64,000 nt of DNA, taken from assembly GCA_964016885.1 (NCBI GenBank), contig OZ024761.1, positions 10,726,001-10,790,000 of the forward strand, written 5' to 3'. The notes below the pieces were generated by a model that saw nothing but the letters and a program-made list of their open reading frames with translations, ran no database searches and was not told the origin of the DNA. This DNA is from Eledone cirrhosa (taxonomy: Eukaryota). Made by a program: the position numbers and the translations under genes. Shown piece after piece: positions 7,101-60,448 of this stretch. The number at the start of each line of letters is the position of its first letter. Positions within the stretch are counted from its first letter, which is position 1.

Positions 7101-7400
7101 CCACCGTATGCAGTTCTCTGGCTACAATCAGAGAGATAGAATCAGAGTGTATAAAGGAGCCAGAACCAAATGGGAAAAAATGGTAAATAATGACATAAAT
7201 GGGACCTGCCCCTTGTATAGGAGCAAATTTTGGAATAGAATAGAAAGAACTAAGAACAAGGCCAATAGAATAAACTCATGGTATGATAGCAATAAATACC
7301 AGAGTGTAATGTTCATCAATACAACCCCTAGAGGCGAACTAGCCTACAAATTTAGAAGGGCCCTAAAGAAACATAATCTCAATATTAAGATAGTAGAAAG
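4200..7400 (+). CDS. PLE ORF: N-terminal region with Asn/Thr/His-rich insert + RT; endonuclease lost (ORF track 4156-7470 has chimeric ends)
   Basis: Same RT sequence as 1844-4162. It diverges after NIKIVE, where the ribozyme array begins. Confidence 0.88.
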
Positions 7401-8912
7401 TAATCTACGCGTTTCATTCTTGTTAGAAATCTTCAGGACTACATTCTCGATAAAAGCACTGGATATGTAGTCCTGAAGATTTCTAACAAGAATGAAACGC
7501 GTAGATTACTTCCCTTGCTTTTATCGAGAATCTAATTATAATACGTGACGTATTCTATTCTATAGCGATTAGGTCTTCAAAATGTTTATTATAAACATAC
7601 AGAATATTTTCGAATATTCTATGTCTATATTCACATATATATCGCTATTTCAGAGCATTTATTCTAATTTCTAATTTCTGCCGGACCGGCAACCGCTCTT
7701 TCAAACCAGTTCCTGTACACGGCTAAGTATTCTATAAGTCTCTAGCTGTGTCATTCTCGATAAAAGCACTGGATATGTAGTCCTGAAGATTTCTAACAAG
7801 AATGAAACGCGTAGATTACTTCCCTTGCTTTTATCGAGAATCTAATTGTAATACGTGACGTATTCTATTCTATAGCGATTAGGTCTTCAAAATGTTTATT
7901 ATAAACATACAGAATATTTTCGAATATTCTATGTCTATATTCACATATATATCGCTATTTCAGAGCATTTATTCTAATTTCTAATTTCTGCCGGACCGGC
8001 AACCGCTCTTTCAAACCAGTTCCTGTACACGGCTAAGTATTCTATAAGTCTCTAGCTGTGTCATTCTCGATAAAAGCACTGGATATGTAGTCCTGAAGAT
8101 TTCTAACAAGAATGAAACGCGTAGATTACTTCCCTTGCTTTTATCGAGAATCTAATTGTTATACGTGACGTATTCTATTCTATAGCGATTAGGTCTTCAA
8201 AATGTTTATTATAAACATACAGAATATTTTCGAATATTCTATGTCTATATTCACATATATATCGCTATTTCAGAGCATTTATTCTAATTTCTAATTTCTG
8301 CCGGACCGGCAACCGCTCTTTCAAACCAGTTCCTGTACACGGCTAAGTATTCTATAAGTCTCTAGCTGTGTCATTCTCGATAAAAGCACTGGATATGTAG
8401 TCCTGAAGATTTCTAACAAGAATGAAACGCGTAGATTACTTCCCTTGCTTTTATCGAGAATCTAATTGTAATACGTGACGTATTCTATTCTATAGCGATT
8501 AGGTCTTCAAAATGTTTATTATAAACATACAGAATATTTTCGAATATTCTATGTCTATATTCACATATATATCGCTATTTCAGAGCATTTATTCTAATTT
8601 CTAATTTCTGCCGGACCGGCAACCGCTCTTTCAAACCAGTTCCTGTACACGGCTAAGTATTCTATAAGTCTCTAGCTGTGTCATTCTCGATAAAAGCACT
8701 GGATATGTAGTCCTGAAGATTTCTAACAAGAATGAAACGCGTAGATTACTTCCCTTGCTTTTATCGAGAATCTAATTGTAATACGTGACGTATTCTATTC
8801 TATAGCGATTAGGTCTTCAAAATGTTTATTATAAACATACAGAATATTTTCGAATATTCTATGTCTATATTCACATATATATCGCTATTTCAGAGCATTT
8901 ATTCTAATTTCT
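7398..8912 (+). mobile_element. Retrozyme-like tandem array R310 (~4.7 x 310 bp) with a short inverted arm at 7398-7443
   Basis: Unit start CATTCTCGATAAAAG at 7442, 7752, 8062, 8372, 8682. One HHR per unit. Ends in (TA)n. Confidence 0.88.
7467..7509 (+). ncRNA. Type I hammerhead ribozyme (repeated at 7777, 8087, 8397, 8707; inverted copy 7400-7442)
   Basis: GTAGTC CTGAAGA T TTCT-aaca-AGAA T GAAA CGCG TA GATTAC, enclosed by a perfect 16-bp stem ATTCTCGATAAAAGCA/TGCTTTTATCGAGAAT. Confidence 0.9.
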
Positions 8913-10437
8913 ATATATATATATATATATATATATATATATATATATATATACATATACATATATATATATATGTTTATATATACATATACATATATAT
9001 ATATATATATATATATATATATACATATACATATATATATATATATATATATATATATATATATATATATACATATATATATATATATATATATATATAT
9101 ATATATATATACATATATATATATATATATATATACATATATATATATATATATATATATATATACATATATATATATATATATATATATATATATATAT
9201 ACATATATATATAAATATATACATATATATATATATACATATATACAATATATATATATATATATATATATATATATATATATACATATATATATATATA
9301 TATATATATATATATATACATATATATATATATATATACATATATATATATATATATATATATATATATATATATACATATATATATATATATATATATA
9401 CATATATATATATATATATATATATATATATATGTATATTTATATGTATATTTATATGTATATATATATATATATATGTATATTTATATGTATATTTATA
9501 TGTATATATATATATATATATATATACATATAAATATACATATAAATATACATATATATATATATATATATATATATATATATATATATATATACATATA
9601 TATATATATATATATATATATATATATATACATATATATATATATATATATATATATATATATATATATATATATACATATTATATATATATATATATAT
9701 ATATATATATATATACATATATATATATATATATATATATACATATACATATATATATATATATATATATATACATATATATATATATATATATATATAT
9801 ATATATATATATACATATACATATATATATATATGTTTATATATACATATACATATATATATATATATATATATATATACATATACATATATATATATAT
9901 ATATATATATACATATAATTGTATATATATATATATATATATATACATATATATATATATATATATATATATATACATATATATATATATATATATATAT
10001 ATATATATATATATATATATATATATATATATATACATATATATATATATATATACATATATATATATATACATATATACATATATATATATATATATAC
10101 ATATATATATACATATATATATATATATATATATATATATATATATACATATATATATATATATATATATATATATACATATATATATATATATCTACAT
10201 ATATATATATATATATATATATATATATATATATATATATATACATATATATATATATATATATACATATATATATATATATACATATATATATATATAT
10301 ATGTATATTTATATGTATATTTATATGTATATATATATATATTATATGTATATTTATATGTATATTTATATGTATATATATATATATATATATATATATA
10401 TATATATATATATATATATATATATATATATATAATA
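8913..10437. repeat. Interrupted (TA)n tract (mostly CA interruptions)
   Basis: Direct sequence. Confidence 0.98.
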
Positions 10438-10439
10438 TA

Positions 10440-57726: not shown

Positions 57727-57791
57727 TGAGCCTATGAACTTTTAAGCCTACCTTATATGCAAACAATGTAAGTATATACAAATAACTACTA

Positions 57792-58124
57792 AGATTTCGG
57801 CTCGGGGAAATTTAAGGAACTGATGTCGCTAAATCGCCAAATCATTTACCTGCCCCGTTGCATCATGGGAGGGTAATGTCTGCCTTTTATTTTCGAAAAC
57901 CATGGCAGTCTTTTTAATATCTTTCTCGCTAAAATGTTTTAATTATTTACTTATATGAAACAAGGAACAAGATGCTGCGAAAGAAACTAAAGAATCTGCC
58001 ATCGTTTAAAAAATAAAAGGCAGCCATTACCCCCCCCCCCCCCCCCCCATGAGGCAACGGGGGCAGGTAAATGATTTGGCGATTTAGCGACATCAGTTCC
58101 TTAAATTTCACCAGGACGAAATCT
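57792..58124. repeat. ~330-bp imperfect palindrome (truncated copy at 48360-48600)
   Basis: GAAATTTAAGGAACTGATGTCGCTAAATCGCCAAATCATTTACCTGCCCC and its reverse complement at ~58060-58110. Confidence 0.9.
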
Positions 58125-58472
58125 CAAGAACGATAACTCTGTGTTTACTTAATCGCAAAAATGGGTGCAAAAATTATTTCGAAACAACACTTGCTATGGA
58201 CGAAAACGAGAATATTAAAAGTATTTCGTGGATTTTTAATAGGTGAACACACCATTATATATATATATATATATATACGTATATATATATATATATATAT
58301 ATATATATATATATGTATGTATATATATATATATATATATATATATATATATATATATATATATATATATATATATATATGTATGTATATATATATATAT
58401 ATATATATATATATATATATATATATATATGTATGTATATATATATATATATATATATATATATATATATAT

Positions 58473-60448
58473 ACAATTAAGTTAAAGATGTACATCCATA
58501 TATGTATACTGAAATACTAGTATGTATATGAATAAACACACGTATACATATGTAGATGTACCAAGTTTTTTTCACTGGTCACTTTACTGTGAGTGGCCAG
58601 CTATTCTGTATGTAAACACACAGACAAACCGGTTTTTAGAGAAAAAGCATATAACGATATGTGCTTTTACGATTCTCTAGAGAGGCCGGAAGATAGGTAA
58701 ATATTGCTGATGAGTTGTAACAACAACGAACTACTAGTTCAATATTCCTTGTCTGGCTTTCTGGAGAATAGAGGAAAGGTGTTTCCTCAAAAACCAGTAT
58801 GACTCTAAAAACCGGTTTGTCTGTGTGTTTACATACAGAATAGCTGGCCACTCACAGTAAAGTGACCAGTGAAAAAAACTTGGTACATCTACATATGTAT
58901 ACGTGTGTGTATTCATATACATACTAGTATTTCAGTATACATATATGGATGTACATCTTTAACTTAATTGTTTAAGCGTCAGTCATACAAAAGTGAGTTA
59001 CAAACGAAACGAAATTTAATTTCGTTTCGTTATTTGTTTTTATCGTCTCCGTTGAACCGGTACTTACTCACACTCTATGCAAATTAGTCTGCCCACTACT
59101 AATTTTCATAGAAAAAGCATATAACGATATGTGCTTTTACGATTCTCTAGAGAGGCCGGAAGATAGGTAAATATTGCTGATGAGTTGTAACAACAACGAA
59201 ACTAGTTCAATATTCCTTGTCTGGCTTTCTGGAGAATAGAGGAAAGGTGTTTCCTCAAAAACCAGTATGACTCTAAAAACCGGTTTGTCTGTGTGTTTAC
59301 ATACAGAATAGCTGGCCACTCACAGTAAAGTGACCAGTGAAAAAAACTTGGTACATCTACATATGTATACGTGTGTGTATTCATATACATACTAGTATTT
59401 CAGTATACATATATGGATGTACATCTTTAACTTAATTGTTTAAGCGTCAGTCATACAAAAATGAGTTACAAACGAAACGAAATATAATTTCGTTTAGTTA
59501 TTTGTTTTTATCGTCTCCGTTGAACCGGTACTTACTCACACTCTATGCAAATTAGTCTGCCCACTACTAATTTTCATAGAAAAAGCATATAACGATATGT
59601 GCTTTTACGATTCTCTAGAGAGGCCGGAAGATAGGTAAATATTGCTGATGAGTTGTAACAACAACGAAACTAGTTCAATACTCCTTGTCTGGCTTTCTGG
59701 AGAATAGAGGAAAGGTGTTTCCTCAAAAACCAGTATGACTCTAAAAACCGGTTTGTCTGAGTGTTTACATACAGAATAGCTGGCCACTCACAGTAAAGTG
59801 ACCAGTGAAAAAAACTTGGTACATCTACATATGTATACGTGTGTGTATTCATATACATACTAGTATTTCAGTATACATATATGGATGTACATCTTTAACT
59901 TAATTGTTTAAGCGTCAGTCATACAAAAGTGAGTTACAAACGAAACGAAATTTAATTTCGTTTCGTTATTTGTTTTTATCGTCTCCGTTGAACCGGTACT
60001 TACTCACACTCTATGCAAATTAGTTTGCCCACTACTAATTTTCATAGAAAAAGCATATAACGATATGTGCTTTTACGATTCTCTAGAGAGGCCGGAAGAT
60101 AGGTAAATATTGCTGATGAGTTGTAACAACAACGAAACTAGTTCAATATTCCTTGTCTGGCTTTCTGGAGAATAGAGGAAAGGTGTTTCCTCAAAAACCA
60201 GTATGACTCTAAAAACCGGTTTGTCTGTGTGTTTACATACAGAATAGCTGGCCACTCACAGTAAAGTGACCAGTGAAAAAAACTTGGTACATCTACATAT
60301 GTATACGTGTGTGTATTCATATACATACTAGTATTTCAGTATACATATATGGATGTACATCTTTAACTTAATTGTTTAAGCGTCAGTCATACAAAAGTGA
60401 GTTACAAACGAAACGAAATTTAATTTCGTTTCGTTATTTGTTTTTATA
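58473..60448. mobile_element. Retrozyme-like array R468b: inverted arm 58473-58640 (-) and ~3.9 units (+) at 58640-60448
   Basis: Period 468 (ORFs 59137/59605/60073); TA tracts on both sides. Confidence 0.9.
59170..59214 (+). ncRNA. Type I hammerhead (also 59638, 60106; mutated copy 58700-58746)
   Basis: AATATTG CTGATGA GTTGT-aaca-ACAAC GAAA CTAG TT CAATATT; outer stem ATTCTCTAGAGAG..CCGGA/TCTGGCTTTCTGGAGAAT. Confidence 0.92.

Follow-up and report, generated by a model that had tools for sequence, protein, structure and literature searches.

Introduction

How does a non-coding ribozyme repeat come to be written into a genome in many tandem copies, and which enzyme writes it? The question is raised by a 64,000-nt stretch of the Eledone cirrhosa genome (assembly GCA_964016885.1, contig OZ024761.1, positions 10,726,001 to 10,790,000, forward strand; hereafter the window), which is a nest of insertions within (TA)n tracts. 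Five non-coding tandem arrays, R310, R591, R557, R468a, and R468b, lie there among Penelope-like elements (PLEs), the most prominent of which we call PLE1. A preliminary description of the window had proposed that the arrays are retrozyme-like, recently active, and copied by rolling-circle reverse transcription with the reverse transcriptase (RT) and GIY-YIG endonuclease of the neighboring PLEs. We conclude, with a probability of roughly three in four, that they represent five families of non-long terminal repeat (non-LTR) retrozymes, whose two-armed insertions in (TA)n were likely written by a Penelope-type RT/GIY-YIG enzyme priming both DNA ends on one RNA, probably often a circle.

Each array is a pair of divergent arms with two fixed 3' ends

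The five arrays were found where they had been described, off by a few bases at most, and their near-identical units (~99%) do occur in fractional numbers. None is a plain head-to-tail array, a point missed earlier: comparison of the window with itself revealed a strand switch inside every one of the five, such that each consists of two divergent arms around an internal inversion. For each arm, unit positions were assigned on a monomer whose numbering starts at the predicted ribozyme cut. The minus-strand arm always comes first, so that both 3' ends face outward, and head-to-tail units, at least two of them with whole ribozymes, occur inside arms of all five families in addition to the central inversion.

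The families are dispersed and not confined to this locus, with 5,507 exact core matches genome-wide for R310, 7,444 for R591, 4,189 for R557, 10,122 for R468a, and 5,201 for R468b; reversed control cores gave 0 matches. We examined 159 further loci in a sample that leans to young copies and consists mostly of best-identity matches. For four families it includes nearly all clusters among the best-identity matches listed, and for R468a, where a pattern search was used, 20 clusters were picked from the first 100 matches listed on contig C1. One R310 array (G000:C1:43587373-43593655) keeps a 308-nt spacing through ~20 units in both arms and lies beside a 310-nt array.

In each family, the 3' ends of arms cluster at two narrow sites, A and B, located at ~127-139 and ~161-172 nt after the predicted cut in R310, 76-85 and 245-250 nt in R591, 78 and 185-196 nt in R557, 230-235 and 301-304 nt in R468b, and 247-254 and 300-312 nt in R468a. 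The A-to-B spacing, or tail, is thus ~25-30 nt in R310, ~60 in R468a, ~70 in R468b, ~118 in R557, and ~165 in R591. The 159 loci contained 106 divergent arm pairs and 0 convergent ones. Ten pairs were set aside, five with an end lost at the edge of the fetched sequence or in N and five with one end at neither site. All 96 assignable pairs combined one A end with one B end, with 0 A/A and 0 B/B; removal of a duplicate leaves 95 of 95 (p about 5e-29). TA adjoins 277 of the 298 free arm ends. Circular minimum free energy folds gave no evidence of a fold common to sites A and B.

Insertions with a single arm use either site, and two of them bear a 14-nt arm from the other site. Three single-arm insertions, L040, L041, and L058, have on their other (5') side a short stretch of the target flank copied in inverted or direct orientation, as though the second DNA end had been extended on the target itself. 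Arms vary widely in where their 5' ends fall; hairpins and A/T tracts are hot spots, and 0 of 271 lie at the predicted cut (6.65 expected). At the central junctions, the overlap is mostly 0-3 nt.

In the window, R310 comprises a short inverted stub of 0.15 unit with one hammerhead core (7398..7444, minus strand), which joins the truncated PLE1 open reading frame (ORF) at 7400 by a 3-nt microhomology with no TA, and a main arm of 4.75 units of 310 bp with five hammerheads (7442..8913, plus strand; predicted cuts after 7503, 7813, 8123, 8433, and 8743), which ends at site B against (TA)n at 8912-10450. The minus-strand arm of R591 (15813..16704; 1.51 units, with two hammerheads of U3-A8 core and long stem II predicted to cut after 16484 and 15893) ends at site A, and its second arm (16702..16954, plus strand; 0.43 unit) ends at site B, both against TA. 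The R557 arms end likewise at A and B with TA; the minus-strand arm (30517..33101) has 4.65 units and five hammerheads with C-A at the base of a long stem II and a GUU triplet, and the plus-strand arm (33098..34493) has 2.51 units with two complete hammerheads and a third interrupted at the junction. In R468a, the outer end of the minus-strand arm (48603..49305; 1.5 units, one hammerhead) lies at neither site and without TA, at a deletion-type junction, and the main arm (49305..51206, plus strand; 4.06 units, four hammerheads) ends at site B against TA. R468b has a short arm of 0.36 unit without a hammerhead (58473..58641, minus strand), ending at site A against TA, and a main arm of 3.86 units (58640..60447, plus strand) with three intact hammerheads and a damaged one at 58707, ending at site B with TA.

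The (TA)n setting described for the arrays therefore holds for 8 of 10 outer ends, the exceptions being the left ends of R310 and R468a. Five distinct families had also been described. The five arrays are real, but R468a and R468b are related (66% over 253 nt), which leaves four recognizably separate lineages. The array frames include no stop-to-stop frame of 120 aa or more, except a 135-aa frame across the R468a microsatellite.

PLE1 has the same two-arm geometry

The arrays encode no RT or GIY-YIG domain; such ORFs belong to the adjoining PLE1 and to a second type, PLE2, present as a 3' fragment with a GIY-YIG domain between TA tracts (10978..11800, minus strand). PLE1 is itself two-armed. 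Its minus-strand arm (1343..4199) has an open 785-aa RT and GIY-YIG frame and a minimal hammerhead at 1541, and its 3' end lies at the PLE site A against TA; the second arm (4200..7400, plus strand) has a 1066-aa open frame without start or endonuclease and is cut off by R310. A further PLE1 3' fragment (20748..22165, plus strand; duplicated at 25021-26438) ends at site B with a 56-nt tail. The two PLE1 ends are separated by 56 nt and follow the minimal hammerhead of the element by 162 and ~215 nt. Among 20 PLE1 loci, found with a query that favored B ends, 14 pairs were resolvable by eye, and 12 of these (two of them paralogues) were A/B. Given the same two-arm geometry and paired ends, the inverted 5'-truncated copy, and the two start sites, the retrozymes carry the PLE footprint in their insertions, which supports recent, Penelope-type mobilization of retrozyme-like repeats more strongly than co-location does.

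Pfam matches to the PLE1 RT and GIY-YIG domains were under cut-offs. A CX4CxxC motif, given for Neptune and Nematis in Craig et al. 2021 (PMC8557442), stands ahead of GIY-YIG, and any clade placement of PLE1 would rest on this one motif. At L118 (5432) and L127 (3482), a frame that begins with an ATG just before PLE1 site A continues across the tail into the ORF, much as in the anole element, where the start sites fall within the beginning of the ORF. A TATCG-like word lies across five of 12 3' end sites, namely PLE1 A and B (22109, 22160), R468a B (51206), R468b B (60447), and R310 A. This word was chosen after the fact and is absent from R557 and R591; PLE1 may be the partner of some families only.

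Three further non-coding, TA-flanked elements (13071-14833, 51577-52376, and 60510-64000) have inverted ends and minimal-hammerhead-like cores (13163, 51779, 60721, 61533) and are probably non-autonomous PLEs. An older relative of R557, 83% identical, lies at 37939-38044 and 38056-38345 beside a diverged PLE1-like 3' end with a tail.

Both arms appear to be copied from one RNA

Variants among units were analyzed in four families (R310, R591, R557, and R468b) at 142 loci including the window, with one duplicate dropped. A variant was fixed in all covered units at 49 of these loci and across both arms at 29. At seven loci, variants present in only some units were nevertheless common to both arms, in the same register from the outer ends at L044, L063, L067, and L081, and offset by one unit at L037, L064, and L149. 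The register at L044, L063, and L081 is not the centre-symmetric one that hairpin conversion around the junction would favor. As both arms share variants, including partial ones, they were likely copied from one RNA.

Arms exceed one unit in 224 of 271 cases and reach 27 units, with 855 of 873 unit joins unchanged across the predicted cut, as expected from a circle or an uncut multimer. At L067, two unit types alternate for three rounds, in the same phase in the other arm, resembling the product of a dimer circle. The many haplotypes fixed throughout insertions point to single-unit bottlenecks and, like L067, speak for a circle. Template jumping between cut linear monomers was rejected, because the 873 joins were free of scars at the cut, the exceptions being two changes in length that lie a few bases upstream of it.

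Predicted hammerhead ribozymes

A type I hammerhead descriptor matched once per unit in all five families, on the sense strand only. Shuffled units gave 0 of 2000 in four families and 2 of 2000 in R468b, a chance of at most 0.001. The description of exactly one type I hammerhead per monomer is accurate for full units and fails at two spots, the damaged R468b core at 58707 and the R557 core at 33098, which lacks the 5' strand of stem I. Core strings are almost invariant across copies. The stems III of all five families are perfect palindromes able to pair between two copies, exactly as reported (ACGCGT for R310, ACTAGT for R468a and R468b); a short palindromic helix III functioning as a dimer is given as the usual metazoan form in PMC4209133. 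The R591 core, which has a long stem II, is not CUGANGA: U3 and A8 take the place of C3 and G8. Perreault et al. 2011 (PMC3088659) describe this covariation as natural and active.

In the R310, R468a, and R468b folds, stem I is long and contains an internal loop, and all three have an AACA loop II (z -3.7 to -6.7). For the R557 and R591 motifs, folding was no better than for shuffles, and the lowest-energy fold of R591 is not a hammerhead. The Rfam check returned 0 matches at gathering score, so Hammerhead_1 gives no confirmation; R468b scored 37.7 bits (E 6e-6) against HH9, under the cut-off of 52, among the best 150 of 702 matches. In contigs of sequencing runs X1 and X4, R468b has a compensatory U-A to A-U change in stem II and likewise a U17C change. 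Ribozyme activity is a prediction for all five families, and cleavage may be slow, given the GUU triplets and the mismatches in stem II.

For the segment 58980-59447 of the window, runs X4 and X5, which are labeled as other organisms, contain only 3-4 R468b contigs with one haplotype dominant (depth ~188 in X5); X1 by comparison holds 1,212 R468b contigs. The single-haplotype contigs are not read here as expression, as the library type of X1, X4, X5, and X6 is unrecorded.

Local history of the window

The two R468 arrays occupy copies of one local duplication. The central site of the first copy (47429..52416, plus strand), which is 95-98% identical to the second (56771-61359), holds R468a, and the same site of the second holds R468b, indicating that the two arrays arrived separately after the duplication. 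Relative to its paralogue, the first copy lost ~220 bp with the TA tract and the end of the R468a arm. The left end of R310, with its 3-nt microhomology to PLE1 and no TA, most simply looks like a deletion of this kind. Insertion of PLE1 and R310 as one chimeric complementary DNA (cDNA) is not preferred, given that the paralogous copy reveals the R468a left end to be a deletion; elsewhere, 21 of 298 free ends lack TA, and none of these runs into a PLE ORF.

Two other near-identical tandem duplications, ~4.3 and ~4.7 kb, lie at 19389-22160/23672-26433 and 38390-42758/43089-47428. A 270-bp TA-flanked element (19389-19658 and 23672-23935, minus strand) has a hammerhead-like core (19519, 23796) with an apparently full stem III, unlike the five arrays, and failed the type I descriptor. 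An 88-bp minisatellite of 6-7 copies without a CTGANGA core is present in both copies of the R468 duplication (47748-48294, 57092-57726). Fragments of long interspersed nuclear elements (LINEs) with RT and apurinic/apyrimidinic (AP)-endonuclease domains (54412-55872, 34900-35560, and 1-708) are cut by the same TA tracts. An ATGCAAAT octamer is retained in the monomers of R468a (350 nt past the cut) and R468b (338 nt past it), where it precedes the following hammerhead by ~100-110 nt. Newt satellite 2 has a small nuclear RNA-type promoter.

A model for insertion and its alternatives

In the model that we favor, the arrays would be transcribed and their hammerheads would cut as dimers through the palindromic stem III, yielding monomers or small multimers that are circularized, as the literature on other retrozymes suggests. 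A PLE protein would bind this RNA and cut both strands of a TA tract, in keeping with the TA targeting observed. The two 3'-OH ends would prime at different sites, one at A and one at B, which lie 77-312 nt past the predicted cut, and so produce the fixed ends and the A/B pairing. Each RT would then pass several units, up to the 27 observed, and stop at the scattered positions seen, and the two cDNA ends would be joined, mostly via the observed 0-3 nt overlap. We regard PLE-type twin priming on one RNA as highly probable. A circle as the usual direct template seems only somewhat better than an even bet; rolling-circle copying of circular RNA, as first proposed, is plausible, some loci needing a multimeric template. 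It is also possible, at slightly less than even odds, that a dimeric Penelope enzyme places two RTs at two fixed sites of one ribozyme-made circle of one, two, or more units, with both rolling round it, one from either end of a double-strand break in (TA)n.

Several observations weigh against the favored model. The windows for sites A and B, which span at most 26 nt, were drawn after inspection of the data. PLE tails are 30-40 bp, and the A-to-B distances of four families (~60-165 nt) exceed this; the tail is ~25-30 nt in R310 and 56 nt in PLE1. PLE1 itself breaks the rule, with B/B in two of its 14 pairs, and no complete PLE1 ORF was found within the window or four loci checked. The monomers gave no blastn match at E 0.01 to the pseudo-LTR (pLTR) or 5' end of PLE1, the only PLE compared. 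Together with the 0 of 21 non-TA ends that run into a PLE ORF, this leaves unsupported the earlier suggestion that the RT/GIY-YIG of these particular PLEs was used. L044 and L063 need a heterogeneous template of at least three units and L081 one of at least four, so that a monomer circle cannot be the sole template. For 95 single-unit variants, the other arm has no match in that register, which indicates that most heterogeneity arose during or after copying. There are also variant repeats without a period at L018, L030, L032, L074, L079, and L192, which suggest that slippage or unequal exchange is a second source of array length. As for the ribozymes, one of nine Xenopus retrozyme dimers is reported to have cleaved in Li, Clavereau and Pollet 2026 (bioRxiv 10.64898/2026.07.22.740005), and hammerhead cleavage is described as not needed for PLE insertion in vitro in Frangieh et al. 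2024 (PMC11167929).

The same PLE-type twin priming could instead act on a linear transcript that reads through an existing array and stays uncut, any circles being a by-product. The seamless joins and the absence of 5' ends at the cut fit this template equally well, and the non-periodic variants shared between arms at L044, L063, and L081 argue for it, as do ribozymes that may be slow and the finding that unprocessed RNA was the main anole PLE substrate in vitro (Frangieh et al. 2024, PMC11167929). However, internal priming and 5' truncation would shorten arrays in each generation, yet arms reach 19-27 units, and the many haplotypes fixed in every unit of both arms need repeated single-unit bottlenecks. 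Moreover, no locus was seen to combine a copied-through central junction with the flank of another; L159, which shares a junction with L035, was rejected as its read-through daughter because haplotypes and flanks differ. We consider a linear template unlikely, although it deserves to be kept in view.

Replacing the enzyme rather than the template is still less attractive. LINE fragments with RT and AP-endonuclease domains lie in the same TA tracts, and no direct sequence tie connects the arrays to PLE1, such that a LINE RT with L1-style twin priming, or a DNA repair polymerase, might have made the two-armed insertions. In L1 twin priming, the position of the second primer varies, and there is hardly any overlap between the two parts. 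The array ends are instead fixed and internal, with the same units repeated, exactly as in PLE1, and we judge a non-PLE enzyme improbable. The arrays could also be minisatellites that grew from single inserted units by local unequal crossover, a view raised in the discussion of Li et al. 2026 and in line with the non-periodic duplications inside long arms. Satellites form few long local arrays with unfixed ends, whereas these arrays are short, with thousands of dispersed, 99% identical copies having fixed 3' and scattered 5' ends; both arms are multi-unit with shared haplotypes, and the two copies of a 95-98% identical duplication received different arrays, R468a and R468b, at the same site. 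Local growth as the origin of the arrays is thus very improbable. Finally, the inversions might be artefacts of fold-backs in long reads or of assembly. The assembly may derive from run X1, whose support is then not independent, but X1 contigs show TA joined at both sites, and the arms at 106 pairs are unequal, with different fixed end sites and different flanks, which makes the chance of an artefact negligible.

Comparison with known systems

The retrozyme class and its link to PLEs are already in print. Cervera and de la Pena 2020 (PMC7229834) describe non-LTR retrozymes, their circles, and the proposal of a PLE partner. Li et al. 2026 report units of 51-972 bp and a kinship to pLTRs, with matches to transposable elements, mostly PLEs, in 24 of 57 Xenopus families, and leave the mechanism open. 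Monomers of up to ~590 bp are therefore not long for this class, contrary to what had been supposed. Like the animal non-LTR retrozymes in these two accounts, the arrays are non-coding tandem units with one type I hammerhead each and a short palindromic stem III, dispersed in high copy number, within the published length range, and in a genome with PLEs of the kind proposed as partner. Published retrozymes appear in the text of these accounts as head-to-tail arrays, whereas the arrays here insert into (TA)n as two divergent arms that stop at fixed A and B ends. The arrays also differ in showing no pLTR similarity to the one PLE compared, in the long stem II inserts of R591 and R557, and in the U3-A8 core of R591. 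Expression and circles are demonstrated in published cases, whereas the five arrays are known from sequence alone. Neither a two-site rule nor two-armed insertions were found for retrozymes in the literature searched, a search whose reach did not extend to subscription journals, figures, and supplements.

With endonuclease-bearing PLEs, as described in Craig et al. 2021 (PMC8557442), the arrays share 5' truncation, an inverted 5'-truncated copy, a tail at one end, a (TA)n bias, and partial tandems; non-autonomous Chlamys elements with multicopy head-to-tail insertions are mentioned there as well. Unlike these PLEs, the arrays have no ORF, canonical rather than minimal hammerheads, tails of 60-165 nt in four families, and up to 27 units per arm. 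The tail at one end is strict in the arrays (96 of 96 pairs) and is said only to occur "often" in that text. The PLE1 hammerhead at 1541 is of the minimal type known from PLEs, for which circles have been proposed as templates for more-than-unit reverse transcription, whereas the array motifs are of canonical size with a stem I of 5-7 bp. In PAc Poseidon, studied in vitro (Frangieh et al. 2024, PMC11167929), RT starts at two internal sites that correspond to the genomic ends, targets are AT-rich, both strands are extended, and the protein is predicted to form a dimer, all of which resembles what we propose here. The start site was no different between strands, unlike the A/B pairing of the arrays, and that work does not report one-site-per-strand pairing, single-RNA use, or trans-mobilization of ribozyme repeats.

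Implications

The return of animal retrozymes to the genome and the tandem and inverted PLE copies with a one-sided tail are both left open in the cited papers, and the insertion architecture described here points to a specific, testable mechanism. The rule can be used in the published in vitro PLE assay, with the expectation of one arm per start site and both arms from one RNA. An RT that writes multi-copy arms from a small RNA would also be of interest as a tool. If two RTs do roll round one circle, the two-armed arrays would be genomic records of that process, which would be a general PLE mechanism and would account for the one-sided tail. In that case, five RNAs that are unrelated or only distantly related would each have gained a two-site loading signal, with spacings of ~26 to 165 nt. 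The five families together contribute more than 32,000 ribozyme cores, which makes these elements a sizeable recent force in this 3-Gb genome.

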